A program made the translations under genes and the position numbers. This document shows positions 1,843-50,924 of a stretch of 64,000 nucleotides of DNA, in pieces; positions within the stretch are counted from its first letter, which is position 1; each line of letters starts with the position of its first letter. The notes under the pieces were generated by a model, which was not told the DNA's origin, made no database searches, and saw nothing but the letters and a program-made list of their open reading frames with translations. Source of the DNA: an uncultured delta proteobacterium (GTDB lineage: Bacteria > Desulfobacterota > GWC2-55-46); NCBI GenBank assembly GCA_963727865.1, contig CAVSHY010000014.1, forward strand, positions 38,236-102,235. The letters are read 5' to 3'.

Positions 1843-3894
1843 ATGGAAAACGTTAAAGCGCTCAACAAGTTCAGCGAGCTTGACGCCCTCTCGATAAATA
1901 CCATAAGGTTTCTCGCGGTCGATTGCGTTGAGGCCGCGAATTCCGGGCACCCGGGGATGCCGATGGGCGATGCTCCCATGGCTTATGCGCTATGGACGCG
2001 ATTCCTCAGGCATAACCCCGGAGACCCGAGGTGGGCCGGCAGGGACCGTTTTATCCTTTCAGCTGGCCACGGTTCCATGCTCCTCTATTCCCTCCTTCAC
2101 CTGACAGGATACAACCTGCCCCTTGATGAGCTCAAGAAATTCAGGCAATGGGGGAGCCACACCCCTGGGCATCCCGAGTATGACCTGAATATCGGGGTGG
2201 AGACCACGACAGGGCCCCTCGGCCAGGGTTTCGCCACGGGCGTCGGCATGGCGATGGCCGAGAAATATCTCGCGGAGCGGTTTAACAGGCCCGGGTTCCC
2301 GGTCTTTGATTACAATATCTACGCCATAACAAGCGACGGCGACATGATGGAGGGGGTCTCGAACGAGGCCGCCTCGATGGCCGGGCACCTTGGGCTCGGC
2401 AAGATCGTCTACCTCTATTCGGATAACAGGATTACCATAGAAGGAAGCACGGACCTCTCGTTTACAGAGGATGTCGCGAAGCGTTTTGAGGGCTTAAAGT
2501 GGCATGTCCAGAAGGTGGGGGGCAATGACCTCCCCTCGATAGCCGCGGCGATACAGGCGGCTAAAGAGGAGACGGCGAGGCCGTCCCTCATTATCGCGCG
2601 GACCAATATCGGCTTCGGCAGCCCCGGAAAGCAGGATACCGCCGAGGTCCACGGCGCTCCCCTTGGGCACGAGGAGGTAAGGGCGACGAAGGAGCGCCTC
2701 GGCTGGCCCCTTGAGCCTGGCTTCCATATCCCCGAAGAGGCGCTTAAGGCCATGAGGCAGGCGGTCCCGAAAGGCGGGGAATTACAGAAGAAATGGAACT
2801 CCATGCTTGAAAAATACTCGAAGGGGTATCCGGAACTCGCGGCTGAATTAAAAAATCTTCTCGCGGGCAGGAAGGATGATTCCTGGATAAAAGAGATGCC
2901 CGCATTTACCGTAAAGGACGGCCCCATAGCCACAAGGAGCGCCTCAGGCAAGGTCCTGAACGCGATAGCTAAGAAAACGCCTTTCCTCATGGGAGGCTCC
3001 GCTGATCTGGCGCCGTCAACGAATACGCTTTTAAAGGGCATGGGGAACTTCCTCCCGGGGAAGGCGGGAAGGAACATCCACTTCGGGGTGCGCGAGCACG
3101 CCATGGGCGCCGTGCTTAACGGGATGGCCTTGAGCAGGATGCTGATCCCCTACGGCGCGACGTTTTTGATTTTTTCGGATTACATGCGCCCCCCGATGCG
3201 TCTCGCGTCCCTCATGGGGCTCCATGTCATATATGTCTTTACCCACGACTCCGTCGGCCTCGGGGAAGACGGCCCGACGCACCAGCCCGTTGAGCATATC
3301 GCCGGCTTAAGGACGGTGCCGCGCATGACAGTAATCCGTCCGGCTGACGCCTCGGAAGTCGTCGAAGCCTGGAAGCTCGCGCTCCTCCATGAAAAAGGCC
3401 CGGTCGCCCTGGTGCTGACGAGGCAGAACCTTCCTGTAATCGACAGAAGCCGGTTCGCCTCCGCCGAGAATCTCTCGCGCGGCGCATATGTCCTTGCCGA
3501 TCCTTTAGAAGGATCCCCGGAGATCATACTTATCGGTACGGGTTCGGAAGTGCATCTCGCGCTGGGCGCGTATGAAGAACTTTCAAAGCGGGGCGTTAAG
3601 GCCAGGGTAGTAAGCATGCCGAGCTGGGAGGTCTTCGAGGCCCAGGAAGCCGATTATAAATCCTCGGTGCTGCCGCCTGAGGTAAAGCTCCGGATTTCGA
3701 TAGAAGCCGCGTCCCCCATGGGCTGGCACCGCTACGTCGGGCCGGAGGGGGACGTGATCGGCCTTGAGAGGTTCGGCGCGTCGGCCCCGGCCGGGACCCT
3801 GTTTGAGAAATTCGGCTTTACGGTTGAAAACGTAAGCAAAAGGGCGATGGATCTCATCAACAGAAAAAAGGGGCTCTTCCTCGACAGGATCTGA
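1843..3894 (+). CDS. tkt: transketolase
   Basis: Motifs GHPG (TPP binding), full N, middle and C-terminal transketolase domains; start taken at [10 protein letters not shown] (ATG 1843). Confidence 0.95.
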
Positions 3895-4228
3895 AAACGG
3901 ACGCGGGGAAACCTGTCTTTCTGAAGATGCATGGCGTTCACCTGCCCGAAGTTTACCGCGGGGAGCTTCAATGATCAGCCCTAAAAAACTTATTTTTAAT
4001 ACCCCGTCTCAAAAAAGACCCGGAAGAGGAACGAGTCTTCCTGAAAACCTGAATTGCCGGCAGGACGCCTTTTTTGCGGGCCGCCGGGACTCTGCTATAC
4101 TTGGTTCATAAATCTCCGTTTTGCGCAATCCGTTTTCAGCCGCACCAGCGAAATCGCATCCGGCGCTCCGTTGTAGATGAAGCCGTGCCTGAAACGTCTT
4201 ATTATTTTCCGTGAGAAGGAGGCATGTC

Positions 4229-7117: not shown

Positions 7118-7198
7118 CAGAGCGTGTTTTCCGGAAAGGAACTTTCCGCCTGAAAGTTTTCAAGAGCGCCCTTTAAAAAACGGAGGGGGGAGGGGAAA

Positions 7199-8107
7199 AT
7201 GCAGATAGGAATGATCGGCCTTGGCCGGATGGGCATGAACATGGCGCGTAGGCTCCTCATAAACGGCCACAGCGTGGCCGCGTATGACAGGTCAGGGGAT
7301 AAGGTCGGGGAGGCCGGGAGGGAAGGCGCCGCCCCGGTTTTTTCATTAAAGGAACTGGCGGATAAACTTTCAAAGCCGAGAGTCCTCTGGATCATGGTCC
7401 CGGCCGGGAAACCGGTCGATGATGCCATAGCGGAATTAAAGCGGCATCTATCCCCCGGGGATATTGTGATAGACGGGGGGAACAGCCGCTATACGGACGA
7501 CATCCGCCGGGAGGATGAGCTTAAGAAGGTAAATATAAATTACATGGATGCCGGGGTTAGCGGCGGCGTGTGGGGGCTTAAGAACGGATACTGCGTCATG
7601 GCCGGCGGCGAGAGGGAGCTTTTCGGGCATATCGAGCCGCTTTTAAAATCTCTCTGCGCGCCAGAGGGTTATCTCTACTGCGGCCCCATAGGCAGCGGGC
7701 ATTTCGTGAAGATGATCCATAACGGGATCGAGTACGGGATGATGCAGGCCTACGGCGAGGGGTTCGAGATCCTTAAAGCGTCGAGGTACGGCGAAGGGCT
7801 CGACTTCGCGGACGTGGCGCGGCTGTGGAACAGGGGAAGCGTAGTCAAGTCGTGGCTCCTCGAACTCCTTGAGAACGCGTTCAGGAAGGACAGGAACCTG
7901 GAGTCGATAAAGGGATACGTAGAGGACTCGGGCGAGGGAAGGTGGACGGCAATGGAGGCGATAGATCTCGCCGTAAGCGCGCCGGTCATAACCGAATCCC
8001 TTTACCGGAGGTTCCGCTCCAGGCAGGAGGAGTCTTTCTCGGAGAAGGTCCTGGCGGCCCTCAGGGCGGAGTTCGGCGGGCACGCTGTCAAACCTGAGCA
8101 TAAATAG
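7199..8107 (+). CDS. gnd: 6-phosphogluconate dehydrogenase (decarboxylating), short NAD-binding form
   Basis: 302 aa; [19 protein letters not shown] Rossmann N-terminus and 6PGD C-terminal domain; RBS GGAGGGGGG. Confidence 0.85.
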
Positions 8108-8130
8108 ATCTTTTAAACGGCGGGGGCTTT

Positions 8131-9720
8131 ATGTCGATAGGGGAAACAAAAATGGAGAAGGGAACGCCCGTAACGGCCGTGAGGGTCGGCGAGCTGGAAC
8201 TGACCGGAGAGCCGTGCGTGGAATTCTGCCCGCCGCCCTGCGGCGTAGTGATATTCGGGGCTTCCGGAGACCTCACCGCGAGGAAGCTCGTGCCTTCTTT
8301 TTATAATCTCACCAGAAACGGCCTCCTTCCGAAAAACTTTTTTATCATGGGCGCTTCCAGGACGAAGATGGATGACGAATCCTTCAGAAACGCCATGGAA
8401 GAGGCCGTAAGGACACACGCCAGGTTCGACGAATCCGTCTGGAAGGACTTCAGGAAGAGGCTTTTCTACAGGCCCGCCTCCGACATCAAATCTTTCGAGA
8501 ATATCAGGGAATCCCTGCTGGAGAAGGAAAAGGAGTTTGATACCCTTGGCAACAGGATATTCTACCTCGCGACCCCGCCCTCGGCCTATTCTGAGATCAT
8601 AGAATACCTGGGCGCCACCGGGATGTCCGAAGAAACAGGAGGCGGCTGGCCGCGCGTAGTAATAGAAAAACCTTACGGGAAGGACTTAAAGAGCGCCCTT
8701 GAACTGAACGAGGTGGTGCTCAGGAGCTTCGGGGAGGAACAGGTCTACAGGATCGACCATTACCTCGGCAAGGACACGGTGCAGAACATCATGATGTTCC
8801 GCTTCGCTAACGCCATATTCGAGCCGATCTGGAACAGGCGCTACATAGACCACGTCCAGATTACCGCCGCCGAGGAGATAGGCATCGAGAAGAGGGCCGG
8901 GTACTACGAGCAGGCCGGGGTGCTCCGCGACATGTTCCAGAACCATATGCTCCTGGTCATGTCTCTTGTCGCCATGGAGCCGCCTTCGGTCTACGAGGCC
9001 GATCTTGTAAGGGACGAAAGGGTCAAGGTCTTCAGGGCGCTAAGGCCCCTGCCGATGGATAACCTTTCAGATTCCCTTGTTACCGGCCAGTACGTGGCAG
9101 GCAAGGTCCGCGGCGGTTTCGTCCCCGGTTACAGGGAGGAAAAGGGTGTCGCGAAGGATTCGTCCGTGCCGACTTTCGCGGCGATGAAGCTTTATATAGA
9201 CAACTGGAGATGGCAGGACGTGCCGTTTTACCTCAGGTCGGGTAAAAGAATGGCGAAGCGGTTCTCCCAGGTTTATATCCAGTTTAAGCATGTGCCGCAC
9301 CTGATGTTCAAGAACACCATTAAAGAAGGGATCACGCCCAACGCCCTTGTTCTCAAGATCCAGCCCGATGAACGGGTACAGCTCAAGTTCCACACGAAAA
9401 ACCCGGGCTCAAGGGTGAGTCTGCGCGATGTGGTCATGGATTTTTCATACACTGAAGGATACAAGGGGATCATACTCGACGCGTACGACAGGATGCTCCT
9501 TGACTGCATGATCGGAGATAAGACCCTTTTTATCAGGAAGGACGGCGTGCGCCTCACGTGGGCGCTCCTGACCCCGGCGCTTGACCTCCTTGAAAAGGGC
9601 GGGCCCGGGGACGCGAGCAAAATTCCTGAACTCGGCATTTACAGGGCCGGGACCCTGGGGCCGGCCGAGGCCGACAGGTTCATCCAGAAGGACGGCAGGC
9701 GGTGGAATAATGACGACTGA
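8131..9720 (+). CDS. zwf: glucose-6-phosphate 1-dehydrogenase
   Basis: 529 aa; [14 protein letters not shown]-binding motif and RIDHYLGKD active-site motif. Confidence 0.95.
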
Positions 9721-10750
9721 GGCAAGGGCCGAAGGAGTTAGGGCGGCAGAGAGCGGCGGGGGCCGCGTTCCAGTCATCCTCTCCGGCGACATCGGGGGAA
9801 CAAAGACCTACCTCGGACTCTTCACGCTCAAAGACGCCCGCCCCGTGCCCTTGAGAGAGGCCTCGTTCACAAACAGCCAATTCCATGGACCCCTTGAAGT
9901 GATAGAGGAGTTCCTTAAGAAAGACAGCGCGCGGAAGATAGATTCCGCCGCCTTCGGCGTCGCGGGACCTGTCGCCGATGGCCGTTCAAAGATGACAAAC
10001 CTCCCATGGGTGGTTGACTCAGCCGAGATAGCCGGGAGGCTCGGAATAAAAAAGGCCGGGGTTATAAACGACCTCGTGGCAACGGCGTGGGGGGTCGATC
10101 TCCTTACGGAGGAGGACATTCTTACCTTGCAGGAAGGAAACCCCGAGCCCGGGAACGCGGCCCTGATCGCCGCTGGCACCGGGCTCGGCGAGGCTCTTCT
10201 TTACTGGGACGGCTCATCGCTCATACCTGTAGCCTCGGAAGCCGGGCACGCCGACTTCGCCCCCCGTGATCCCCTCGAAATTGAACTCCTCCGTTATCTT
10301 ATCGGCCTCTACGGACACGTAAGCTATGAACGGGTCTTGTCCGGGCGCGGGCTTGAGGATATTTATAATTTCTTTAAGGATAAAAGCGGCGGGGCCGAAC
10401 CGGGATATTTAAAAAAAAGGTTTAAGGAAGAAGGCGTGGCGCCTGTCGTCTCCGATGAGGCGATGAACGGCGCCGATAATAACTGCAAGCGGGCCCTTTC
10501 TCTTTTCCTCTCCATCTACGGCGCCGAGGCGGGTAACCTCGCTCTAAGGAGCTTATCCGCCGGCGGGCTTTATGTGGGCGGCGGGATCGCGGTGAGGATA
10601 TTGGAAGCCTTCAAGGAGAAAGACGTTTTCATCGGTTCGTTCCTTAAAAAGGGACGCCTTAAAGATTTTCTCTCCCGCGTACCGGTGCGCGTCATACTTA
10701 ACGATAAGACAGGGCTCCTCGGCGCCGCGCGTTACGCCGCGAGGCTCTGA
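9710..10750 (+). CDS. glk: glucokinase
   Basis: ATG at 9710 overlaps the zwf stop; [10 protein letters not shown] matches the Glk-family ATP-binding motif (E. coli VGDVGGTNAR). Confidence 0.8.
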
Positions 10751-11018
10751 CAGGTTGTTGGAAAAACAGTATTCTGGAGGAAACTTTCTGTAGAAAGGTT
10801 TCCCCCAGACCCCTTTCAAAGATTTTTAGCCGGAACCAAAAGTTTTTGGAGAGAGTTTGAGGTCCGTGCGGACGGCAATTTAACTCTTGGACGCTTACCC
10901 GTCACGTACGTTTTTGCTGAAACCTATGCTAAACAATTAGCCGTGCGCAGCACTTTTTACAAAAAGATTCTCTCAAAACACTTTTTCAACACCTGCCACG
11001 AAGCACGGGACAGGAAAA

Positions 11019-11765
11019 ATGGAAAGATTTATTTACGAAACCCCTGAAGCCCTTGGAAGGGGAGCCGCGGAACTCTTCCGCGCCCTGTCCGAGGAAGTGA
11101 TAAGGAAGAGAGGCCTCTTTACGGCGGTGCTCCCGGGAGGGTCCACGCCTCAGGTATTATTCAAAATCCTTTCATCGGAGTTCAAGGACAAAATTCCGTG
11201 GAACCGGGTCCATTTTTTTTGGGGCGATGAAAGGTGCGTTCCCCCCGAAAGCCCGGAGAGCAATTATAACGGGGCCTGTAAAACTCTCCTTTCGAGGATA
11301 GCAATACCCCCTGAAAACATCCATCGCATAAAAGGGGAACTTGACCCTGTGGAAGGCGCCAGGGCCTACGAGAAAGAGATCAGGGGGTTTTTCGCCGCGC
11401 CCATGAAGGCCCCGGGAGACGTCCCTGTCTTCGACCTCGTCTTACTCGGCATAGGAGAGGACGGGCATACGCTGTCGCTCTTTCCCGGCTCAAAAGCGCT
11501 CGATGAGAAGGAAAGGCTTGTGGCGGAAAATTACGTTCAAGAGCTCAGGGCCTGGCGCATCACCATGACGCTTCCTCTGGTAATTAACGCGTCGAATACC
11601 GTATTTCTCGTCTCCGGGGGAAAAAAGGCAGGCATCCTGAAAGAGGTCTTGAACGATACGGGAGAGGCGCGCTACCCCGCTCAGATGATAAAGCCTGTAA
11701 AAGGGAGGCTTACGCTCCTAACGGACAAGGCGGCCGCCGGGGTTTCAATATTTCCTTCGGGTTGA
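11019..11765 (+). CDS. pgl: 6-phosphogluconolactonase
   Basis: 248 aa; LPGGSTP, GDERCVP and LLGIGEDGHT motifs of the Pgl/NagB fold. Confidence 0.9.
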   Translation: MERFIYETPEALGRGAAELFRALSEEVIRKRGLFTAVLPGGSTPQVLFKILSSEFKDKIPWNRVHFFWGDERCVPPESPESNYNGACKTLLSRIAIPPENIHRIKGELDPVEGARAYEKEIRGFFAAPMKAPGDVPVFDLVLLGIGEDGHTLSLFPGSKALDEKERLVAENYVQELRAWRITMTLPLVINASNTVFLVSGGKKAGILKEVLNDTGEARYPAQMIKPVKGRLTLLTDKAAAGVSIFPSG

Positions 11766-11934
11766 ATTCCCCGCGGCTTGCCGCGTATATAAAAATAGAT
11801 TTCCCTTCGGATACCCCGCAGCTTGCTGTGGGGAGATTCATGGTTAAAGCGTTAAGGGAGACTTTCAGAAGAGGAGAGTATTTTTTCGGGTTAGGCTCAG
11901 AAACCTTAAATTTTAAAACACGCCCGCGGGTCTG

Positions 11935-11972
11935 GAAGGAAAAAGAAAGGGCGGTTTTTATTGAACCGCCCT
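11935..11972 (-). terminator. rho-independent terminator downstream of cytochrome gene
   Basis: On the - strand GGGCGGTTCAATAAAAACCGCCC hairpin (stop codon in loop) followed by TTTCTTTTT. Confidence 0.6.
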
Positions 11973-12299
11973 TACGTTTGTGTGGCAATTGGCGCACATA
12001 TAAAGCGGGAAGGCCTTGGGGCTGTTGTGGCAGTTCGGCGAACCGCAGAACTGCTGTTCCATATTGCGCTTCATTGATATATCGTTCGCCCCGCGCTTGT
12101 CCTTGAATATCTTCGGGTGGCAGTCGCCGCATCTGTAAAGCTTCTCGTGTTTGTCATGCGGGAATATTACCGGCCCCACGCCGGCCTTGTCCATGCTGGC
12201 TATCTTGTCGTCGAGCTTGATATTTCCGATCGCGCCCATCGCAGCCGCGGGCACGGTCAACAAAAGCGCCAGCGCCGCGATGATCTTCCATCTTGCCAT
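11958..12299 (-). CDS. triheme cytochrome c7 (PpcA-like) family periplasmic cytochrome
   Basis: 113 aa, signal peptide, FPHDKHE then three CxxCH (CGDCH, CGSPNCH-like CxxCH, CANCH) with PpcA-like spacing. Confidence 0.8.
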   Translation of the reverse strand: MARWKIIAALALLLTVPAAAMGAIGNIKLDDKIASMDKAGVGPVIFPHDKHEKLYRCGDCHPKIFKDKRGANDISMKRNMEQQFCGSPNCHNSPKAFPLYMCANCHTNVRAVQ

Positions 12300-20627: not shown

Positions 20628-20963
20628 TCAGGTTAACGCCGGAGCGGAACCCTTAAAGGGTTCCGCTCCGGTCTTTTTAATAGAATTTATACCGGCAACC
20701 CGGCCAGGGGGATCATTTCGCCGGGCAGCAACCTGAACAATCGGGCTTGCCGGGCTTGCGGGAGTCTCTTTTTTGGCGTCCTTTTTCGCGTAATCGGTCT
20801 GATACCAGCCGCTGCCCTTCAGCACGAAAGAGGACTGGGAGATGAGTTTTTCCACCTTGCCCCCCGCACAGTGTATGCATTTTTTTACGGGCTTATCCGA
20901 AAACTTCTGGATAAGCTCGAATGTCTTCCCGCAGTCATTACATATATATTCGTAAATCGGCAT
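20628..20963 (-). CDS. FmdB-family zinc-ribbon protein
   Basis: [16 protein letters not shown]...CIHCAG CxxC...CxxC signature; the C-terminal tail runs through a perfect 13-bp-stem hairpin (20637-20676). Confidence 0.65.
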
Positions 20964-21311: not shown

Positions 21312-22327
21312 CTACTTTACGAGGTAGGACCCGAGGGTCTCTCTTGTCCCCTCGAAAGTGGCGATAGTCTTCGCGCTCCAATCGGGTTTTACCCTGTATG
21401 CCGAAGGGGCCGCGTAGTAAGAGTCAACCGCCTCCCTCAGGACCCCTGTCATGGCGCTCACGTAACTTTTTGTCCGCTGCCTGCCTTCTATCTTGAAGGC
21501 GGCGGCTCCGGCCTCGATGAGATCGGGCACGATCCTGAGGATATTGAGCGACTCCGGGTCTTCAAGCACATATGAGACAGAGCCGTCGGGTTTGATGTAC
21601 CTTCCCTTGCAGCAGGTGGGGTAGGGCGAGGATTCCGTGGCGGAGAGCCTGTTCAGCAGAACGTTATTCAGCGTTATCGACATGCCGCCGTCCGGGTTAT
21701 TTATGAACCGGACGAAGCGAGAAGGGGAGCACGCCCCCGTGGTATTGGTCGACGCCCCTGTTACGAATGAAGAGAGGTAGCACCTCCCTTCGATGTTTAT
21801 GCAGAGGCCACCCTAGACGCGAAGACCTCTATCTCGACGTCGGTACGCTCCTTGAGTTCCTTTATCTCTTTTACGGTAAGGACGCGGGGGAGCACGACCC
21901 TTTTTATGCCGAAGTGCTTCTTATAGAAATTTATGCTTTCATAGTTGGACGCGCTTGCCTGGGTAGAGAGATGCAGGTTCGCGTCGGGGTATTTCTCCCT
22001 CGCGTATTTGAGTACTCCGAGGTTGGCTATTATGATCGCGTCCGCCTTGAGAGAGGCGGCCCTGTCCACGGCCGTAAACCACCTCGCGCAGGAATCCTCC
22101 TGGGGAAAGGTGTTTATGGCGACAAAGAATTTCCTGTTCTTCGCCCTTACGTATTTGATCCCTTCCTCAAGCTCCTTCGGGGTGAAATTGAGCCCCTCGA
22201 AGTTCCTCGCGTTCGTGTCGTCGTTGAAGCCGAGATATACGGCGTCGGCGCCGCTGTCTATGGCGGCCTTGAGAGAAGCGATATTCCCCGCCGGTGAGAT
22301 TACCTCGACTTTTTTCATGGTTTTCAA
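21312..22327 (-). pseudogene. peptidase U32 family, disrupted (frameshift near 21700-21800)
   Basis: The N-terminal 176 aa (21797-22327) has a U32 fold (..DAVYLGF..; ends EVFASRVASA*). The C-terminal part (21312-21683, ..AFKIEGRQ..) is in a different frame, and the expected HGALC..SGRC region is garbled. Confidence 0.55.
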
Positions 22328-25810: not shown

Positions 25811-26078
25811 CGGGGATATTTATGGGGGAAACTTTCTGGTTTTTTAAGGATATATTTAATCAAGCGCGGTTACAATCTTATGATTTTTTAAACGATAGGA
25901 GCTTGATTTACACGCGCTGAAAATCTCCCCCCGGACCCCCTTCAAAACATTTGGAAGATTAAGCGCGGCAAGCCGCGGGGAGTCTCAAGAAGTCTGAAAA
26001 GTATTGATAACCCTATGGAGCCGGTGTAGTATAAAAGACCGAAAGGGGATATCTATAGTATTACATGGAGATATTCAG

Positions 26079-27959
26079 ATGGGAGTAAAAAAGATAGGCG
26101 AACTCCTCGTGGAATCGGCTCTTATAACAGAGGAACAGCTCGAAGAGACCCTTAAAGAGAGCAGGCTTAATAAGGGCACGAGGATAGGCGAGATAATCGT
26201 TAAAAAAGGGTATGCCACTGAAATTGATATAGCCCAGACCCTGGCTTTCCAGTTAAAGATACCTTTTCTGGACATGTCCACGGCCACGGTCGACCCGGAG
26301 GCCGTAAACCTCGTAAGCGAAAAACTTGCCAAAAAATACCTTGTGCTCCCCATTTACTTCGATAAAAAGATACTGAAGATAGCGATGGTGGACCCCATGA
26401 ACCTTAACGCCATAGACGATCTCAGGGTGACGACCCGTCTCGACGTCCAGCCTTGCGTCGCCACGCTCTCCGATGTTACCTCGGCGATAAGAAGGCATTA
26501 TCACATCAATGAGCCCCTTGAAGAGCTTATGGTCGACCTTAAAAAGGATAAGCTTATCGAGGTCGTCCGCGATCCGGAAGCGAACCCGGATATTTCGGAC
26601 CATGTAAGAAAAAGCACAACCCCGCCTATAATAAAGATGGTCGACTCCATCATCATTCACGGGGTTGATAACGGGGCGAGCGACATCCACCTTGAGCCGC
26701 AGGAGAGGGCCGTAAAGCTCAGGATCAGGGTCGACGGGATCATGAGGGAGACGATGCAGCTTCCCAAATGGGTACAGGGGCCGGTAACATCGAGGATAAA
26801 GCTCATGACCGGGATGGATATCACCGAAAGAAGGGTATCGCAGGACGGAAGGATGAGGATAAGGATAGGGGATAAGAGCGTCGATATGAGGGTCTCCACG
26901 CTTCCCACCCAGTACGGCGAGAAGATCGTCATAAGGATCCTTGACCCGAAGTCCTCTCTCCTTGACCTTGAGTCAATCGGGCTCTTCAAGGACGACCTCG
27001 ATCTCATCATCGACCTTATAGAAAGGCCCCAGGGCGTTGTCCTTGTCACGGGCCCGACCGGGAGCGGCAAGACCTCGATGCTCTATGCCATGATAAGGCG
27101 GATAAAAAAAGAGGCTATAAACATCGTTACCATAGAAGACCCGATAGAGTATGAGCTGAACGACGTAAGCCAGGTCGCCGTGAACGAAAAGACCGGGCTT
27201 ACATTCTCATACACGCTTCGCTCCGTGCTGCGTCAGGACCCGGATGTCATAATGGTAGGGGAGATGAGGGATACCGAAACCGCCATAATCGCTTATCAGG
27301 CCTCAATGACCGGGCACCTGGTCTTTTCAACCCTTCATACAAACGACGCGGTCTCTTCGGTAATCAGGCTCAAGAATATCGGCATACCGAGTTACATGAT
27401 AGCGAGCGCGCTTAACGGCATCGTAGCCCAGAGGCTTGTAAGAAAGATATGCCCGAACTGCAAGGAAGAATATACGCCCGGGGATTCCGAGCTTAAGAGG
27501 GCGGGGCTCGTCCGGCGGGGGAAAGAGAAATTTTTCCGAGGCACAGGGTGCAAAACCTGCAACAACAGCGGATATTCCGGCCGTTTAGGCGTTTTCGAGG
27601 TCTTAAAGATAAACAGTACGCTAAAAAACCTTATCTCCGCCGACGCGGCGGAAGAGAAGCTTGTAAACGCCGCGAAGGCCTCGGGGATTAGGTCTTTGAA
27701 GGATGACGGATTAAGAAAGGCTGAGGCGGGACTGACTACGATAGAAGAACTCGCGAGGGTAGTTTACCTTTCAAGGGAAGATGACCATAAAGAAGGCGTT
27801 TGTCCGAACTGCATGAAGGCTGTAACAACCGGGGTAGACCAATGCCCGCACTGCGGGCAGTTCATTCTTAAAAACTGCCGGTCCTGCGGTAAAGTAAGGC
27901 ATCCGGATTGGGTGATATGCCCGTTCTGCTCGGCCCGGTTTGATTACGAATTGCCGTAA
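26079..27959 (+). CDS. MshE/GspE-like type II/IV secretion ATPase with extra C-terminal double zinc-ribbon tail
   Basis: N-terminal tandem MshEN-like motifs (IGELLVESALITEEQLEETL, RIGEIIVKKGYATEIDIAQTLAFQ). Walker A GPTGSGKT. The standard tetracysteine site is CPNC..CKTC. An additional ~70-aa tail CPNC-CPHC-CRSC-CPFC follows. No pilus or T2SS partner genes lie nearby. Confidence 0.85.
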   Translation: MGVKKIGELLVESALITEEQLEETLKESRLNKGTRIGEIIVKKGYATEIDIAQTLAFQLKIPFLDMSTATVDPEAVNLVSEKLAKKYLVLPIYFDKKILKIAMVDPMNLNAIDDLRVTTRLDVQPCVATLSDVTSAIRRHYHINEPLEELMVDLKKDKLIEVVRDPEANPDISDHVRKSTTPPIIKMVDSIIIHGVDNGASDIHLEPQERAVKLRIRVDGIMRETMQLPKWVQGPVTSRIKLMTGMDITERRVSQDGRMRIRIGDKSVDMRVSTLPTQYGEKIVIRILDPKSSLLDLESIGLFKDDLDLIIDLIERPQGVVLVTGPTGSGKTSMLYAMIRRIKKEAINIVTIEDPIEYELNDVSQVAVNEKTGLTFSYTLRSVLRQDPDVIMVGEMRDTETAIIAYQASMTGHLVFSTLHTNDAVSSVIRLKNIGIPSYMIASALNGIVAQRLVRKICPNCKEEYTPGDSELKRAGLVRRGKEKFFRGTGCKTCNNSGYSGRLGVFEVLKINSTLKNLISADAAEEKLVNAAKASGIRSLKDDGLRKAEAGLTTIEELARVVYLSREDDHKEGVCPNCMKAVTTGVDQCPHCGQFILKNCRSCGKVRHPDWVICPFCSARFDYELP

Positions 27960-28115
27960 CCACCTAAAATACCTTGGTTTTCCCGCTGACCCGGCTTCCT
28001 GAAGTAAAAAGAATTTACAAAAATCCGGATATCGTGTTATAATTGTTACAATTTGAATCCTGATAGTATTTTTGCGGGCAATTATAATGCTTACCGGAAC
28101 CTGCCTGCCCGTTAT

Positions 28116-28322: not shown

Positions 28323-28986
28323 ATGAGTAGACCCATTTTAAAATATCTTTTCATCTCTTTGCTCGTGGCCATTCCCTCGGCCTCTTTAGCCGGAATCAAC
28401 CCCGATATGGACCCGGCGCCCGCCGACAGGCCGTCTTATCAATATAAAAGGGAGCCGGGACAGCTGAAGCATAACAAATACGGCATGATCGACCCGTCCC
28501 CCGGACGTTATTTCGCTGCAGTTCCTCCCAAAAGACAAATACGGGTTTGTGGACTGGGTGAAGGCGCTGAATGACGGCGTAATCGCCCCCAGGGATTCAT
28601 ACCCCGGCACTCAGCCCGGAGAAGAACCGAAGGACGTCCCTGACATCCTCATAAAGGCCAAGCAAGACTTCATGCCCGATGTGATCTTCCCTCACTCGGC
28701 GCATTCGAAGTGGCTCAAGTGCGGCAACTGCCATCCTAAGATATTCGCTGAAAAGGCCGGAAAGACCCCGATATCGATGGTAGGCATCTGGAAAGGGCAG
28801 TTCTGCGGGAGGTGCCATGACAGGGTCTCGTTTCCGACCAGGAACTGTTTCAGGTGCCATTCGGCCCCCAAGACGTATAAAAATATAGGCGAAGGCGACG
28901 CGTCAAAGGATACAAAGTGGACTTCGAGGGAAGAAAAATTCTCGCGTTCAGCCCGAAAGCCGGGTAAGAAAGATATTCGGGAATAG
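28323..28986 (+). CDS. cytochrome c7-like triheme cytochrome, frameshifted at C5 run (~28495-28502)
   Basis: Signal peptide and N-terminus are in frame 1. The LQFLPKDKYGFVDWVKAL + FPHSAH + CGNCH, CGRCH, CFRCH module is in frame 2. Paralog of 12324-12980, where LPKDKFGLVDWAKSV aligns. Confidence 0.7.
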
Positions 28987-33269: not shown

Positions 33270-34212
33270 TTGAAAAAGATCACGATCGGAACGCGCGGCA
33301 GCATGCTCGCGCTCTGGCAGGCGAACTGGGTAAAGTCGGAGATAGAAAAAAGAAACCCCGGCCTTGAAGTCGCCCTCGAGAAGATAAAAACCACCGGGGA
33401 TAAGATAACCGATGTCCCGCTCGCGATGGTAGGGGGGAAGGGGCTTTTCGTAAAGGAGATAGAAGAGGCCCTCCTTTCCGGCAAGGCCCAGCTCGCCGTC
33501 CACTCGATGAAGGACGTGCCGACGATATTCCCCGAGGGCCTTCATCTCAAGGCCATAACCGAGAGGGAAGACCCGAGGGACGCTCTTTTCAGCAGAAATG
33601 ATATAAAGCTACTCGACCTCCCGAAAGGGGCGCGGATAGGCACTTCGAGCCTGAGAAGGCAGGCGCAGATACTGAATAAGAGGCCTGATTTTCAGATACT
33701 TCACCTGAGGGGCAACCTCGATACCCGCATGAAGAAGCTCGATGAAGGGCGACTTCGACGCCATAATACTCGCGGGGGCCGGCGTAAAGAGGCTCGGATG
33801 GGCAAGTAGGATCACCGAATTCATCCCGCCGGAAGTCAGCCTTCCGGCGATAGGCCAGGGGGCGCTCGGCATAGAGACCCGCACCGAAGATAAATTCATA
33901 AACGGCCTTGTAGAGTTCTTTAACCATCCTGAGACCTCTGCGGCCGTAAGGGCCGAACGGGCGCTGTTAAAGAGGCTCGAGGGCGGGTGCCAGGTCCCGA
34001 TCGCGGCTTACGGAGAAGTCAAGGGCGAGAGCCTCAGGCTTACGGGCCTTGTCGCGTCCACCGACGGGAAGACCATCGTAAAAGACGTAATCACCGGGGA
34101 TAGGGACGAGGCAGAGGCCATTGGGGTAACTCTCGCCGAAAAGCTCCTCAAGATGGGGGCATGGGATATCTTAAAAGACCTCTACGAAGTAAACCCTCCG
34201 GGCGGGGCGTAA
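33270..34212 (+). CDS. hemC: porphobilinogen deaminase (hydroxymethylbilane synthase), +1 G in GGG run near 33745
   Basis: IGTRGS.LALWQA.. N-terminus. Frame switch between ..[12 protein letters not shown] and [16 protein letters not shown]; removing one G gives the canonical [13 protein letters not shown]. Confidence 0.85.
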
Positions 34213-37859: not shown

Positions 37860-37990
37860 ATTTTTGGATTGAAGAACTCCCGCATAAATGCCGGAGTTCC
37901 CGATGGTAAGGTATGTCATTTATATTCGCCGCGCCTTGACCCGCCCGGCCTTTTAAGGGCGGGCAAGGCGGGCGTTCCATTCACCGCACA
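37860..37990 (-). repeat. repeat family B copy (inverted orientation, diverged, compensatory stems) between cbiA and the ThiC-family gene
   Basis: On the - strand the core ATATAAATGACATACCTTACCATCG is flanked by hairpins CGCCTTGCCCGCCC..GGGCGGGTCAAGGCG and GAACTCCGG..CGGGAGTTC. Other copies have GAATCCCCG..CGGGGTTC at the same position. Confidence 0.6.
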
Positions 37991-39369
37991 TCTTTACAAA
38001 ACCGCTCGCGAACGCCGGGTTACTCCCGAAATGGATGTGTATGTAGCTCGCGAGAGTGTTTTTGTAGAGGTAGCCTTCCGAAACCTCTCTCCTCTCCCTG
38101 TTTTTAAAACTGAAAATCCTTTTTATCCTTGAAGGCGGATTTGAGATTTCCGAGTAGTGGTATTCGTGGCCCCTTACTGTGCCGCCGGCGGGGAGTATGG
38201 GAGACGGCTTGATTTGAACCTCCCTGTACCCGAGAGCCTTTCTCCTAAAAAGCATCCGCGATCTCCATGGGAAAACGCCGCACTGGGAATAACTCTTTCC
38301 GCCCGTGTCCACGATAGATTTTCCGAGGTACATAAGCCCGCCGCACTCCGCGTATATCGGCAGCCCCATTTTAGAGAGGCTCTTCAGTTCCTCCCTCATT
38401 GAAAGGTTAGCCTGAAGCTCTTTAGCCCGGAGCTCCGGGTACCCGCCGCCGAGGTAGACCCCGTTTATTCCAGGGGGCAGACCCTTATCTTTAAGGGGGC
38501 TGAAGAAAACAATGCGGGCGCCGAAGCCCCTCAATAGCTCAAGATTTTCTTCGTAATAGAAACAAAACGCCTTATCCCGCGCGACGGCTATACTTACCGC
38601 GGGCTTCCTGCATTGCGCTTCTTCTAAACCCTTTAATCTTACGCGTCCGCTTTGCGGCAATCCTTTCAGAAGGCTTTTTAGATCGATATTTTTTTCAATG
38701 AACGAGGCGGCCTTCCCTATAAACCTTTTCCACGCCTTTCCTTCGAATGTCCGCGGAAGTAACGAGACCGAGGTGGCGTTCCGGCATCGATAAAGACTCG
38801 TCCCTCGGCACGCAGCCGAGCACCCTTGCGTTCGAATCACGCGGCGCCGAGTCCCTTAAGACCTTGCAATGAGCGGGGCTCGCGACCTTATTAAAGACGA
38901 CCCATCTGACATTAACCTGAGGGTCGAAACTCTCAAACCCCTTTATGATCGCCCCGGCGCTTCTCGCTGTTTTTGAAGCGTCAATTACAAGCAGAACCGG
39001 GAGATTTAGGAGCTTTGAAAGCCCTGAGGTCGAGCCCTCGTCGCTCAGGCCGTCTTTGCCGTCAAAAAGGCCCATCACCCCCTCAATGACCCCTATATCC
39101 GCCCCTGTCATATTCCTGAGGAAGGTATCTCTTACTCCACGGTTCCCCATCATCCAGGTATCGAGATTATATGAAGGCCTTTTCAGGAGCGCGCTGTGGT
39201 GGCCGGGGTCTATGTAATCGGGACCGGCCTTAAAGGGCTGGACAATAAGGTTTCTCCGTCTGAGCGATTCCATAATGCCGAGGGTAATTAGGGTCTTGCC
39301 GGAGCCGCTGCTAACGCCCGCAATGATAAAGGCGGAAGGGTCCGTAAAGTTTTTTTTCTTTTTTTCCAT
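37953..39369 (-). CDS. cbiA: cobyrinate a,c-diamide synthase (CbiA/CobB), frameshifted near 38720-38760
   Basis: N-terminal ATPase domain (GVSSGSGKT) in ORF 38695-39369, C-terminal GATase domain (..AECGGLMYL..) in ORF 37953-38840; the frames switch within an AAAGG/AAAAGG-rich stretch. Confidence 0.8.
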
Positions 39370-39414
39370 TAAAGAATACCCGCCGGAAAAGAGAAAGGCG
39401 TTGACAGGCCGCGG

Positions 39415-40050
39415 CTAATAAATTTCCGTTACCTTCATCTCCTGATTAGGCCCGCCGTTTAAGAGTTTAACGACCTTTACGCCGTCCGCGAAGCAATCTA
39501 TGACGTTCAGGCAGCCGTAGTCCTGCTCGATCCTGAAGAAATTCTCGATAGAGAGCCCCATCGCGTCGCAGAGTATCACCCTGTTCACTCCGCCGTGGGC
39601 TACAACGCAGACGGAGCCGTTCCTGTGTTTTTTTGTGATCTCATCGACGGCCGGCAGGACCCTTTCCCTTAAATCAAGGAGGTTTTCTCCGCCCTTGACC
39701 TTGCTCGTCGCGAGGTCCCTGAACCTGAAGCCGGCTTCCTCCGGGAATCTCTCCGCGGCCTCCTCTCTCGTCAGCCCTTCCCACCTGCCGAGGTGGAGTT
39801 CCCTGAGGGCGTGCGCCTTTTCGGGGTTAATCCCCAATCCTTTTCCGATTATGACCGCCCCCTTAAAGGCCCTCTGCAGGTCGCTTGAGTACACCGCCTT
39901 AATGGGAGTCCCGGATAAAAACCCGGAGAGCATTTCCATCTGCTCAACGCCTTTTTCGGTTATATCGATATCAAAGTGCCCGTTATAACGAAGCTCCTGG
40001 TGGTTAACTACCTGGCCGTGGCGTATGAGATAAAGCCTTGTTGCGTCCAT
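39415..40050 (-). CDS. cobC: histidine phosphatase family; likely alpha-ribazole phosphatase
   Basis: LIRHGQ RHG motif, PGM-family fold; context between cobS and cbiA. Confidence 0.7.
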   Translation of the reverse strand: MDATRLYLIRHGQVVNHQELRYNGHFDIDITEKGVEQMEMLSGFLSGTPIKAVYSSDLQRAFKGAVIIGKGLGINPEKAHALRELHLGRWEGLTREEAAERFPEEAGFRFRDLATSKVKGGENLLDLRERVLPAVDEITKKHRNGSVCVVAHGGVNRVILCDAMGLSIENFFRIEQDYGCLNVIDCFADGVKVVKLLNGGPNQEMKVTEIY

Positions 40051-40089
40051 CTTGATCCCCCCTAAAAACGGAACAAAAAGAGTTTCTGT

Positions 40090-40851
40090 TTATATATGCG
40101 GTTGCGCCGCGAGAATCCTCGTGAGCGCCAGAGTTGTTATTAAAAATACCGCCTCCGCGACCTCGCTCTGGAACCCGAAGACATCGCCGGTAACTCCCCC
40201 TATCTTCTTTTTAAAAAAGGCCGAGAACAAATAAATGATAACCCCCAACAGTAACATGAGAAAGAGGGAAAATAGACCGAGGGCCAGGGCGGATAAGACA
40301 GCGGTTAAAACAGTCGCCTTGATAAAAGTAGCCCCCGTGTTGCCCGCGAACGCGGCCCCGAGGCCGCTATCGCTTCTCGCGTATTTTGACCAATACGCCA
40401 TCGGCACCATCGCCCAGCGCCCGATTACCGGGAATATGAACATAACGGGCATCTTCGCTTCCACAGGCATCCCGTCAAGGGCGAGGTACTTTAAGAGTAT
40501 GAGAAGAACCACGAAGGCGACCCCGATGGCCCCCGTTGAGGAATCGCGCATTATCCTGAGCCTTTCTTCCCGGGTGGACCCTCCGGCAAGTCCGTCCACC
40601 GTATCGGCAAACCCGTCGAGATGAAGCCCGCCGTTCGAGAGCACGAGCACAAGGAGCGCTATCCCGGTTACCAGATTACCCGGGAGAAGCCCGGAGAGGA
40701 CATAACTTGAAATAACAAGGAGCCCTCCCTGCAGAGCGCCGACAAGCGGGAAATAGCTCATCGAGGCCGCAAGGTCATCAACGGATATTTCGAGGTCTTT
40801 TTTAACCCGCAATACCGTCAAAAACTGAAGGGCGAGTATAAATCGCTTCAT
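40090..40851 (-). CDS. cobS: adenosylcobinamide-GDP ribazoletransferase (cobalamin synthase)
   Basis: 253 aa polytopic membrane protein with CobS-family N-terminus FLTVLRVK and conserved Asp-rich loop. Confidence 0.85.
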   Translation of the reverse strand: MKRFILALQFLTVLRVKKDLEISVDDLAASMSYFPLVGALQGGLLVISSYVLSGLLPGNLVTGIALLVLVLSNGGLHLDGFADTVDGLAGGSTREERLRIMRDSSTGAIGVAFVVLLILLKYLALDGMPVEAKMPVMFIFPVIGRWAMVPMAYWSKYARSDSGLGAAFAGNTGATFIKATVLTAVLSALALGLFSLFLMLLLGVIIYLFSAFFKKKIGGVTGDVFGFQSEVAEAVFLITTLALTRILAAQPHI

Positions 40852-40884
40852 CCTGAAAATTTCTTTCCACAGATATTACCGTCT

Positions 40885-41940
40885 TTAAACATTCTTTTCA
40901 GAGACCCCCGCGTCCCCGAAGGTCGCCATTTCATTGTATATTTTAACCGCGGCTTCGATCAATGAGATGGCAATGGCAGCCCCCGTGCCTTCGCCGAGGC
41001 GCAGGTCGAGATCGACGAAGGGCTTAAGCCCCATCCTCTCGAGCATCACCCTGTGGCCTCTTTCGACGGAGTTATGGGATGCGAAGAGATAATCTTTTAC
41101 CGCGGGCTTGAGCTCGTAAGCGATAAGCGCCCCCGCCGTTGAGATGAAACCGTCGATGACGACCGGGATACGCCTTGCCGCCGCTCCTATTATAAGCCCC
41201 GTGATCCCGGCTATCTCCGCCCCGCCGACCTTCGAGAGGACGTCTATCGGGTCTGACGGGTCTGGTTTATTTATCCTTAAAGCGTCTTCTATCACTGTTA
41301 CCTTATGCTTGAAGCTCAACTCGTCTATCCCTGTGCCTCTGCCGGTAACGTCTTCTACGCGGGCCCCGGAAATTGCGGCGATAATGGCGCTCGAAGGGGT
41401 GGTATTAGCTATGCCCATCTCGCCCGTGCCGAATACCGCTCCTTCCTCCCCGTATTCCTGAGCCAGGGATAATCCGACCTCTACGCACTTCAAAGCCTCT
41501 TCCCTTGTCATAGCCGGGCCTTTACGCATGTTCCGGGTCCCCCGGACGACTTTTTTCCTTATTAGCCCCTTTGCCTCGCTGAATTCACAGTCAACCCCGA
41601 CATCAACGACCGCGACTTCTGCGCCGGCGTGCCGCGCGAGGACGTTTATCCCGGCGCCGCCCTTCAGAAAATTGTAGACCATCTGGGCCGTAACCTCTTT
41701 TGGGAAGGCGGAAACCCCTTCATCCGCGACGCCGTGGTCCCCCGCGAAAGTGAAAATTATCTTCCTTTTAATCCGGGGTTTCGTGTTCCGCGTTATGGCG
41801 ACATACCTCCTCGCGAACTCCTCAAGACGCCCGAGGCTGTCTTTAGGCTTGGTCAGCATATCAAGCCTTGCCTGCGCCTTATCGAGAAAAGCCGGGTCAA
41901 CCGGGGTTATTGATCCAAGGGTTTCTTCCAGTATTGACAT
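40885..41940 (-). CDS. cobT: nicotinate-nucleotide--dimethylbenzimidazole phosphoribosyltransferase
   Basis: 351 aa; CobT fold with GEMGIANTT-type motif. Confidence 0.9.
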
Positions 41941-41986
41941 CCGCTCCTCCTTATTTTCAGCGTTACAGCCATATCTTCGATTAACT

Positions 41987-42514
41987 CTATTTCATCTTAA
42001 GGGCTATGCCCGCGGCTACAAAAAAAACCTCTTGAGCGGCGTTCGCTATCAATTGGTTTATTGTCCCCGACAGGTCTCTGAATCTCCTCGAAAGAGGGTT
42101 TTCAGGGACGATCCCGAGCCCGAGTTCATTCGATACCGCTATAACGCTTGCTCCCGTACGCTTGCACGAGGCGGCCAATTTTTCAGCCGCTTCTTTAATC
42201 ACGGCGTCGCTCAGGCCCGCTTCAATGAGGTTCGTAAGCCAGAGCGTAAGGCAGTCGATGAGTATTACCCCGCAATCTTTTAAGCCGTCGACCTTTCCCT
42301 CTATATCCTTCGGCTCTTCGACGGTCGTCCAGTCCGCGCCGCGGTCTTTTTTATGGTTATTTATCCTCTCTTCCATCTCGGAATCGAGGGCCTCGGCCGT
42401 CGCTATACAGGCCCTGGGGCCGGGGAGTCCCTCGGCGAGCTTAAGCGCGAACCCGCTCTTGCCGCTTCTCGCACCGCCGAGCACGAAAACGAATTTTTTA
42501 TCAGGGTTCGGCAC
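41987..42514 (-). CDS. cobU: adenosylcobinamide kinase / adenosylcobinamide-phosphate guanylyltransferase
   Basis: 175 aa; Walker A GGARSGKS at N-terminus. Confidence 0.85.
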
Positions 42515-42525
42515 TTTTATTGACC

Positions 42526-43068
42526 TTAATATTCTATCCCTTTCCGGGCGTTTGTCCCGCTGTCGAAGGGGTGTTTTATCTTCAGCATCTCCGTGACGTA
42601 ATCCGATATCCGGACGAGCTCCGCCGGGGCATCCCTGCCCGTAAGGACGACTTCAAGCGAGGCCGGCCTGTTATTAAGGAAATCCATGAGGTCGTTTAAA
42701 CCGATCCAGCCGCCGTTGACCGCCGGCATTATCTCGTCGAGGACAAGCAGATCTATCTCTCCGTCCCTTATCCTCTTTTTCGCGAGTTCGTAAGTATCTG
42801 TTATGGATTTTTTTACGAAAGAACGGTCGGTACTGTCTTTTGTAAAGACAGGATGCCTGCAATTTGACCTTATAAGTTCTATCCCGGATTTAAGGTTTTT
42901 AAAGAATTCCTTTTCCCCTGACGACGCCTTATCCTCCTTGAAGAACTGGACAATAAGGACCTTGAGCCCCTGACCGGCGGCCCGCACGGAAAGCCCGATT
43001 GAAGCGGTCGTCTTACCCTTGCCCTCCCCGGTATATATGTGTATGAGCCCTTTTTTAGACCGTTCCAC
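42526..43068 (-). CDS. cobO: cob(I)yrinic acid a,c-diamide adenosyltransferase (CobO/BtuR type)
   Basis: 180 aa; IHIYTGEGKGKTTASIGL P-loop; GTG start 10 nt after the riboswitch terminator U-tract. Confidence 0.85.
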   Translation of the reverse strand: MERSKKGLIHIYTGEGKGKTTASIGLSVRAAGQGLKVLIVQFFKEDKASSGEKEFFKNLKSGIELIRSNCRHPVFTKDSTDRSFVKKSITDTYELAKKRIRDGEIDLLVLDEIMPAVNGGWIGLNDLMDFLNNRPASLEVVLTGRDAPAELVRISDYVTEMLKIKHPFDSGTNARKGIEY

Positions 43069-47434: not shown

Positions 47435-48184
47435 TTAGTGATCTATAGTCCGCTCCATCTTGACCAGCTCGGCGGCGATGAAGTCGTTCAACGCCTCCTG
47501 GTCATCCTGCTCCACCGAGGTAAACATTATGCCATAACCGCAGAATATTATCTTGCTCAAAAGCTCAAACGGGAACCAGCGCACGATGCCGGTTATCCGT
47601 ACAACCTTTGGTCTTTGGGGAAGGGAGAACATGAGGTGTATTACGGCCCCCTTTATAAGCTCCTCTTTGGTGTGGAGGAAAGCCCCGCCCTCGCTCAGGT
47701 TTATTATGACCCCTGACTTCGTCTCCTCCCCGTACGTGAAGTCCACCGGGATCGAAATCGGGACCCGCTCACTGAGGGTCCTGCTGGCGCGTTTATCGAA
47801 AAAGAGGAGCCTGTTGACGCGGAAGATTATCTGCTCCGGGGAAAGGTCCTTTGACATGAAGCCAGTCGCCCCGAGGTTCTTAAGGCTCTCAAGGACGTGA
47901 TTCGGCTCGTACACCCCGGTTATGGCGAGCACCGGGAACCTGTCACTGAAGCCGTTCTCACCGATCCACTTCAGAACCCCGAAACCGTCGATATGCGGCA
48001 TCTGGAGGTCGAGGATCAGAAGGTCGATTTTTCCCGCGTCCTCTTTTATCCTGGCTATGCAGTCGTCGCCGTCTTTCACGAGCATCACCCCGTGGCCGGC
48101 CTCGGTGAGGATGTCGGAGAGTTTGATCCTGAAAAAGAGGCTGTCGTCCGCGACAACGATATTTTTCGGGTCATTTGTGATCAT
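47435..48184 (-). CDS. response regulator with C-terminal PilZ (c-di-GMP-binding) domain
   Basis: REC domain (VVADD.., ILDLQMPHIDG) plus PilZ motifs RASRTLSER (RxxxR) and NLSEGG (D/NxSxGG). Confidence 0.8.
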   Translation of the reverse strand: MITNDPKNIVVADDSLFFRIKLSDILTEAGHGVMLVKDGDDCIARIKEDAGKIDLLILDLQMPHIDGFGVLKWIGENGFSDRFPVLAITGVYEPNHVLESLKNLGATGFMSKDLSPEQIIFRVNRLLFFDKRASRTLSERVPISIPVDFTYGEETKSGVIINLSEGGAFLHTKEELIKGAVIHLMFSLPQRPKVVRITGIVRWFPFELLSKIIFCGYGIMFTSVEQDDQEALNDFIAAELVKMERTIDH

Positions 48185-50889: not shown

Positions 50890-50924
50890 AAAGACCTCCT
50901 TCAAAAGATTTATGGGATAAATCG

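Follow-up and report, generated by a model that had tools for sequence, protein, structure and literature searches.

Type IV filament motors are usually studied together with the machines that are encoded alongside them, and the closest described systems for the case considered here are PilB of Geobacter metallireducens/sulfurreducens (5tsg/5zfr) and Myxococcus xanthus (3jc8), PilF of Thermus thermophilus (6f8l), MshE of Vibrio cholerae and the type II secretion ATPases GspE/EpsE (1p9r, 4ksr, 4pht). In MshE the N-terminal domain, MshEN, is a receptor domain for cyclic di-guanosine monophosphate (c-di-GMP), and a relaxed search pattern for its motifs was given in the same study (Wang et al. 2016, PMC5013675). 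The strict consensus, (R/K/L)LGxx(L/V/I)(L/V/I)xxG(L/V/I)(L/V/I)xxxxLxxxLxxQ for both motifs with a 5-residue spacer between them, has had its first position widened to R/K/L (PMC11731258), and the same source documents a lysine at position 1 of motif I in nanomolar binders that are the tightest known, PilF GSPII-B (dissociation constant 6 nM), CtPilB and DgPilB2. Here we describe an ATPase gene of this class in a stretch of 64,000 nucleotides (nt) from an uncultured delta proteobacterium (contig CAVSHY010000014.1; the whole stretch is called the window below). Its product combines an MshEN-type N-terminal domain and a PilB-like core with a C-terminal double zinc ribbon, and it belongs to a conserved PilB-derived subfamily that is set by this tail, of the DZR type, and by its genomic solitude, and for which no description was found in the literature searched.

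A search of 5.8 billion proteins returned, among the matches listed, 120 clusters (formed at 90% identity) that are 56-71% identical to the query, nearly all of them from metagenome-assembled genomes (MAGs) of uncultured Deltaproteobacteria/Thermodesulfobacteriota. Most of the listed clusters have the length of the query (620-650 amino acids, aa) and a few are shorter and are without all or part of the tail: P0101 and P0112 have none, P0074, P0087 and P0117 have a partial one and P0089 has the second ribbon only. Source annotations of the family are inconsistent, ranging over TadA, GspE, PilB and 'T2SS/T4P/T4SS family'. Scanning contigs with the query protein gave mostly canonical PilBs of at most 44% identity, the loci of which were reused as a control set, and, among the matches listed, five distant tailed members. 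All 12 homologues of at least 45% identity in the fetched loci (numbered L001 onwards) carry the four tail CxxC pairs, including one from an Acidobacteria MAG (L010) and others from unclassified MAGs, while the tail is present in none of the roughly 80 canonical PilB/GspE/MshE homologues (at most 44% identity). In a neighbour-joining tree of the fetched loci built on the core alone the tailed family forms a clade (37/37, no intruders). As the tail is found in all of these closer homologues and the clade emerges from the core alone, the tail is a clade marker rather than an oddity of one gene and, judged by sequence, the protein is a member of a distinct paralogous clade defined by its C-terminal double zinc ribbon. 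The preliminary description, which a model had made from the letters of the window, was thus right that such a tail is not normal in GspE, PilB or MshE; the tail is no peculiarity of this gene, however, but typifies a conserved clade that comprises over 100 clusters. It had also allowed that the tail might be common in a described PilB subfamily; the literature searched yielded no such subfamily, nor any paper in which a zinc ribbon, double or C-terminal, is joined to PilB or to another ATPase of type IV pili.

The neighbouring genes in the window provide a reason to ask whether the tail could be a read-through or frameshift artefact of an error-prone assembly, as single-base homopolymer indels do split several of them. 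However, the open reading frame (ORF) of the ATPase runs uninterrupted from the ATG at 26079 to the stop codon at 27957-27959 (626 codons), it is free of indels relative to the 98.7%-identical assembly L091, and an independent assembly encodes the identical 626-aa protein (P0001). Furthermore, the tail, with its invariant cysteines, tryptophan and proline, occurs in more than 100 clusters from many samples, and the recurrence of the whole architecture at 56-71% identity to the query is far beyond chance, which refutes the artefact. The start was confirmed as well. The homologue alignment begins at the methionine of 26079 and all homologues open with M-[AGP]-[VTI]-K-K; a longer ORF from a TTG at 26004 was rejected because the homologues begin at the methionine equivalent to that of 26079, which also has a Shine-Dalgarno-like motif.

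The indels themselves are found at A7 versus A6 (23765, acyltransferase) and C5 versus C4 (28498, c7 cytochrome) in the comparison with L091, each breaking its gene into two ORFs by a single base; position 29809 is also listed among the indel sites and a 16-bp indel lies at 28089. HemC (33270-33809 and 33742-34212) and a U32 peptidase (21312-21683 and 21797-22327) are split likewise, and these splits are probably sequencing errors rather than pseudogenes.

The CxxC pairs of the tail begin at C575, C589, C600 and C614 and make up two consecutive ribbons within a C-terminal extension of 64 residues; the four pairs had been noted before, in a tail then put at about 70 residues. Against the Pfam DZR profile (PF12773) residues 575-617 score 26.9 bits, which is 0.4 bit short of the cut-off of 27.3, and most relatives have a precomputed match to the same family. 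In an alignment of 26 family members the tail follows the pattern CPxC-x10-CPxCG-x7-CPxCGKxRxxxWxxCP[YFW]C, with the eight cysteines, W611 and P615 invariant in the 19 full tails and a mean tail column identity of 41%, a pattern of conservation that would be expected if selection maintains a folded zinc module. Residues 565-572 of the preceding linker are modelled with a predicted local distance difference test (pLDDT) score below 50, and linker length and sequence vary across the family; the model thus suggests that the tail is probably tethered flexibly to the core. Modelling of the tail and a search for other proteins that share it had both been proposed in the preliminary description. The AlphaFold model of the tail alone consists of short beta-hairpins with a pLDDT of ~70-81 in the ribbons, without a significant structural neighbour, and a tail-only profile run against 1.84 billion representatives matched 11,248 clusters at an expectation value (E) <1e-3, which are of every architecture and in which the module is often repeated. 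This makes the tail a generic DZR module that indicates no partner. With other DZR modules and the HVO_2753-like zinc finger 9fhl_C it has in common four C(P)xC(G) knuckles at x10/x7/x10 spacing, but it differs from them in that it extends a T2SSE ATPase at the C-terminal end, an arrangement encountered in none of the papers searched, and no function is transferable from DZR relatives.

Zinc ribbons are often nucleic-acid binders, and if those of the tail bound DNA or RNA the ATPase might act in DNA uptake (as part of a competence pilus) or in another nucleic-acid transaction. The best sequence-profile match of the tail in the PDB, 9fhl_C (E 0.002), and the other weak ones (6skf_Az; RNA polymerase subunit P) are ribosome- or RNA-associated, and SSB, RNase J, RadC and ComM are encoded in the neighbourhood. 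However, all of these matches are marginal, with E-values at chance level that reflect CxxC spacing only, the fold search gave no significant match, ComM is encoded on the opposite strand at a distance of 7 kb and does not occur in the flanks of relatives, and SSB, RNase J and RadC are limited to one syntenic group. We regard a nucleic-acid-linked function as highly improbable. A link to competence via RadC, ComM and SSB was likewise rejected, such neighbours being restricted to that one syntenic group.

Two further observations concern zinc ribbons and C-terminal extensions in general. A small protein of the Zn_ribbon_8 (FmdB) type is encoded at 20628-20963 of the window, and its position upstream is kept in L003 (2904-3134) and L005 (1313-1573); it is probably unrelated to the ATPase tail. 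Two Desulfobacterales PilB-like ATPases of 37-39% identity (L043, ORF 2523-4772; L048, ORF 9896-12157) carry another C-terminal extension of ~134 residues, which by eye resembles a cyclic-nucleotide-binding (cNMP/Crp-type) domain (…GEYFGEMSAITGEPRSASIISKG…) and would be another way to put a sensor on the C-terminus of a pilus ATPase.

At the N-terminus the two 24-residue MshEN-type motifs of the preliminary description were borne out, as NCBIfam NF053729 ('c-di-GMP_motif, MshE-related') scores 53.9 bits on residues 5-58 (cut-off 38) and the relaxed pattern of Wang et al. fits at positions 5 and 35. The strict pattern fits neither motif I (KIGELLVESALITEEQLEETLKES) nor motif II (RIGEIIVKKGYATEIDIAQTLAFQ). 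Motif II is closer to it, retaining R35, G37, G44, L55 and Q58 and departing by I36 for Leu, by Y45/A46 in the pair of L/V/I positions that follows G44, and by I51 for Leu, whereas motif I has K5 for Arg (allowed in the extended consensus), I6 for Leu, A14 for Gly (a glycine in most relatives) and S28 for Gln. Ten motif residues (K5, G7, L10, L15, I16, L25, G37, G44, I51 and Q58) are invariant in the 26-member alignment, and the key positions of the motifs are the most conserved residues of the N-terminus. The AlphaFold model places helices at 6-12, 18-30, 36-42 and 48-59 (pLDDT 84-87), corresponding to the expected four. The protein thus resembles MshE in its two tandem motifs, which form a four-helix module of 53-54 residues, in the GSPII C-subdomain and in the T2SSE ATPase that follows (PMC5013675), and differs from it in the lysine rather than arginine that starts motif I, the serine rather than glutamine that ends it and the longer spacer. 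On this motif evidence c-di-GMP binding by the N-terminal module is a well-supported prediction, for which the missing glutamine of motif I is a genuine caveat.

The core, which had been described as a GspE/PilB ATPase with the usual tetracysteine site, proved to be just that. It scores 439 bits against PF00437 (cut-off 24.9), covering profile positions 5-370 of 370, and contains Walker A (GPTGSGKT, residues 325-332, nt 27051-27074), an EDPIE Asp box (353-357), Walker B (DPDVIMVGEMRD, 387-398) and a His box (TGHLVFSTLHTN, 411-422), the key residues of which are invariant in the 26 aligned family members. Over its full length (residues 3-563) the query aligns end to end with PilF (6f8l, 484 bits) and with the PilBs 5zfr, 5tsg and 3jc8 (437-461 bits), with a core identity of ~41-42%, and it has in common with them the MshEN/GSPII N-terminal domain, the N2D-CTD core, the catalytic boxes and the four-cysteine zinc site. 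What sets it apart is the added tail, missing in all canonical PilBs examined, a PilB equivalog score below its cut-off and, in comparison with PilF, a single GSPII domain instead of three. GspE/EpsE is similar in core fold, zinc site and sequence (387 bits; TIGR02533, 561 bits), but its solved chains align only from query residue 89 or 170 onwards, the query falls below the GspE cut-off and the tail is extra. The top NCBIfam match is PilB (TIGR02538, residues 5-562) and GspE (TIGR02533) comes second. The earlier label 'MshE-like' therefore holds for the N-terminal domain, which many PilBs share, and not for the full-length protein, which is PilB-like, TIGR02538 and the PilF/PilB structures being its best matches. 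When compared by fold, the modelled core (AlphaFold) finds PilF, PilB and GspE as matches, with E-values between 1e-37 and 1e-40. Given the full-length similarity to PilB and PilF and these fold matches, we therefore expect the protein to work like a PilB-type extension ATPase, and the conserved motifs and the modelled fold suggest that it would hydrolyse ATP and form hexamers.

The second hallmark of the family is its detachment from pilus genes. Hidden Markov models for T2SSF and secretins were built from verified references in the canonical loci L047 (MSHA-type) and L059 (type II secretion) and run on the six-frame ORFs of 16 family and 75 canonical loci, the family set including the whole window and the median locus length (~17 kb) being comparable in family and canonical sets. 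A T2SSF platform gene was present in the fetched flanks of 0/16 family loci and 52/75 canonical loci (Fisher p = 1.4e-7), a secretin in 0/16 and 19/75 and a prepilin leader motif in 1/16 and 40/75 (Fisher p = 5.5e-4); the 16 family loci collapse to roughly nine independent contexts and the real significance is lower than these p values, but the contrast is still stark. In the window, a search of the full 64 kb yielded no PilC/GspF, no secretin and no pilin motif, and no pilus family was matched by the ORFs of at least 150 aa (and some smaller ones) at 14.9-38.8 kb or by most of those in the remaining window. The orphan status assigned earlier to this gene thus holds, and holds for the whole family; a pilus locus just outside the window in the corresponding region of relatives had been considered, and in relatives none lies within 8-10 kb of the gene (or up to the contig end). 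Unlike the genes of the described systems, the query gene is not beside pilT, pilC or pilin genes, has no gspC-M or gspD near it and is without the msh operon context (MshM/N upstream, MshG and Msh pilins downstream), having RNase J and a c7 cytochrome as neighbours instead. In the genuine MSHA-type locus L047 (AAA_22, TPR, ATPase, T2SSF, pilins, DUF6701) the ATPase is 39% identical to the query and tail-less.

The only family locus that has a pilus gene close by is L068, in which a tailed ATPase of 50% identity lies directly upstream of the gene for a zinc-finger membrane protein, which is followed by a type IV pilin (region 1218-2269). The pilin (150 aa) is of the classic type IV kind with a KKGFTLVE leader (MTLNKKGFTLVEMMVV...), and the membrane protein (199 aa) combines a Cys-rich zinc finger at its N-terminus with a single transmembrane segment and a C-domain without an NCBIfam match. 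This neighbourhood ties the tailed clade to pilin biology, and the zinc-finger membrane protein is a candidate partner of the tail.

The systematic absence of platform and secretin genes would also fit a repurposed ATPase, in which the c-di-GMP-sensing PilB chassis and its tail do another job, for example in c-di-GMP signalling or scaffolding or in the remodelling of a non-pilin substrate; a pilus-independent signalling role in the control of exopolysaccharide has reportedly been proposed for the PilB of Myxococcus. In line with this idea, the gene is found among housekeeping genes in at least eight different contexts, the extra domain is clade-specific and both equivalog scores are sub-cut-off. 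However, the conservation of the catalytic motifs and of the entire N2D/CTD core equals that of working motors, one member (in L068) adjoins a pilin gene, and in type IV pilus systems it is not rare for a motor gene to be unlinked, as exemplified by the pilT/pilU paralogues. A motor for a system encoded elsewhere and a repurposed ATPase were the two functions suggested in the preliminary description; we consider repurposing doubtful.

Upstream of the ATPase gene the window encodes SSB, an acyltransferase and RNase J, and downstream of it a triheme c7-type cytochrome and RadC, which are the cytochrome and radC neighbours of the preliminary description, followed by haem-biosynthesis/cytochrome-assembly genes, ComM and ThiC. 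This arrangement is part of a syntenic block (SSB, acyltransferase, RNase J, (DUF362 Fe-S), ATPase, c7 cytochrome, (LuxR/LuxI insert), RadC) of which the close relatives L001, L002, L003, L005, L007 and L091 retain all or some genes, and in which the c7 cytochrome is the conserved next gene. Distant family members have varied contexts made up mostly of housekeeping genes: dxs-tlyA-ATPase in L004 and L090 (with ffh next in L090), an upstream HD_5 gene in L006, a fab/yceD cluster with a convergent GGDEF gene in L089, GT2 and PMT_2 glycosyltransferases in L008, SecA in L009, an amine oxidase and an ABC transporter in L010, two GGDEF genes and an HDOD gene directly upstream in L011, and TPR proteins with a cbb3-type cytochrome c in L088.

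If the ATPase worked together with the adjacent c7 cytochrome, it could power a pseudopilus for extracellular cytochrome export or assembly, and a pseudopilus-type cytochrome export has reportedly been proposed for PilA-N/C of Geobacter. The two genes follow each other on the same strand in the window and in the six close relatives named above, with gaps down to 61-96 nt, the cytochrome matches TIGR04257 'nanowire_3heme', and the ATPase gene of L088 also adjoins a c-type cytochrome. All c7 cases, however, fall into one syntenic block of close relatives and amount to one evolutionary observation, as no cytochrome neighbour is found in the distant members L004, L006, L008-L011, L068, L089 and L090, and the cytochrome of L088 is of the unrelated cbb3 type and convergent. 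In the window the two genes are 363 nt apart with a strong promoter-like site between them, a consensus match that suggests that the cytochrome has a promoter of its own. A motor for cytochrome export is thus quite improbable.

Together, the domain architecture, the intact catalytic and motif residues, the clade-wide conservation of the tail and the detachment from pilus genes lead us to favour a PilB-class extension ATPase that responds to c-di-GMP, works in trans on a filament machine whose genes lie elsewhere and uses its tail as an adaptor, to which we assign a probability of roughly 0.55. In this model the protein would be a catalytically competent, hexamer-forming extension ATPase whose N-terminal MshEN four-helix bundle binds c-di-GMP, and binding would tune its engagement with a PilC/GspF-type platform, as in MshE, PilB and PilF. 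This platform would belong to a machine for type IV filaments, either pili or pseudopili, that is specified by another part of the genome. The predicted two-zinc tail, which would hang from the rim of each subunit on its flexible acidic linker, may act as an adaptor between proteins, recruiting the motor or positioning it, or may regulate it.

Several observations weigh against this model. Motif I is without the terminal consensus glutamine (S28 here; S/G/E/T elsewhere in the family) and the motifs are separated by six residues where the consensus has five. The PilB and GspE scores (592.1 against 675.65 and 561.3 against 630.25 bits, respectively) stay under their equivalog cut-offs, and the full-length AlphaFold model is of moderate quality (pLDDT 69.5). 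Foldseek comparison of the tail-only model with the PDB returned nothing below E 0.05 and generic zinc knuckles only. Finally, no platform, pilin, secretin or PilM-Q gene is near the ATPase gene in 15/16 family loci, an arrangement that points to no particular partner machine. The coordinates of the features are collected in Table 1.

Table 1. Features of the ATPase gene and of the region immediately downstream (window coordinates; residues are those of the ATPase).
Feature	Position	Strand	Remarks
GGAG Shine-Dalgarno-like motif	26067..26070	+	8 nt 5' of the ATG, read directly
ATPase gene	26079..27959	+	complete ORF, 626 aa; PilB-class secretion/pilus ATPase with C-terminal double zinc ribbon
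Four-helix c-di-GMP-binding-type subdomain of MshEN	26091..26252	+	residues 5-58: motif I K5-S28, 6-residue spacer, motif II R35-Q58
C-terminal subdomain of MshEN/GSPII	26256..26504	+	residues 60-142; Pfam PF05157, 70 bits, E 1.7e-19; pLDDT 83-91
T2SSE ATPase core	26619..27758	+	residues 181-560; Pfam PF00437, E 1.2e-131
Core four-cysteine (zinc) site	27450..27560	+	C458, C461, C491, C494; all four invariant
Acidic linker, core to tail	27765..27800	+	residues 563-574, YLSREDDHKEGV; low predicted confidence
Double zinc-ribbon tail	27801..27929	+	residues 575-617: CPNC-x10-CPHC-x7-CRSC-x10-CPFC
Sigma-70-like promoter match	28014..28043	+	11/12 positions, extended TG, between ATPase and cytochrome; consensus match only
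Triheme c7-type cytochrome gene	28323..28986	+	TIGR04257, 60.6 bits (cut-off 40); split by 1-base C-run indel at ~28498

Genes for c-di-GMP turnover or related functions lie beside or near the ATPase gene in four family loci of unrelated context, namely L011 (1839-5520; GAF-GGDEF, GGDEF, HDOD), L006 (9002-9937; HD_5), L089 (9762-10988; Tll0287-GGDEF) and L007 (193-2505; GAF-GGDEF-EAL). In the window itself the REC-PilZ regulator reported earlier at 47435-48184 was confirmed, and a PEGA-domain protein (55524-56429) and a BcsG-type cellulose phosphoethanolamine transferase (58684-60261) are also encoded, which suggests c-di-GMP-linked exopolysaccharide functions in this region of the genome; the ORFs at 50626-51429, 52781-54244, 56476-57057 and 60266-61081 have no Pfam match. 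In relatives a LuxR-type pair (Autoind_bind; Autoind_bind-GerE) and a LuxI-type synthase are inserted between the c7 cytochrome and RadC (L001 12728-14684, L003 12609-14551, L007 9183-11049), a cassette that is missing from the window and L005; acyl-homoserine-lactone systems are not known to be common in lineages of this type. Between RNase J and the ATPase, L001 (8861-9964), L003 (8808-9920) and L005 (8764-9876) encode a DUF362 4Fe-4S protein of ~370 aa, in place of which the window has a 268-nt gap (25811-26078). Farther away, the window contains a compact oxidative pentose-phosphate/glucose cluster at 1750-11765 (transketolase, a 968-aa transaldolase-PGI fusion, 6-phosphogluconate dehydrogenase, G6PD, glucokinase and 6-phosphogluconolactonase) and, on the minus strand at 37953-43068, a cobalamin late-step cluster (a CobB/CobQ-like gene in two ORFs, a CobC-like histidine phosphatase, CobS, CobT (DBI_PRT), CobU and CobO).

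The most likely outcome is a plain one, in which the protein turns out to be an extra PilB paralogue, and if it is an ordinary second PilB the value of this work is limited to better annotation. A bolder idea, which we rate as a long shot, is that of a PilB-derived motor, gated by c-di-GMP, that moved out of the pilus cluster because it had ceased to serve a single dedicated pilus, and whose tail docks it to a different target, for example a pseudopilus for c7-type cytochromes or a target that is not a filament; if true, this would be a new wiring of second-messenger control into a secretion ATPase. The clade is well conserved and retains its catalytic and c-di-GMP-motif features. It has acquired a module, now fixed, that is predicted to bind two zinc ions, and genes for platforms, pilins or secretins are hardly ever found beside it. 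Identifying the partner of the tail and the machine, if any, that the motor drives would explain the targeting of an orphan extension ATPase and could reveal a new c-di-GMP output in uncultured, cytochrome-encoding lineages labelled Deltaproteobacteria/Thermodesulfobacteriota.

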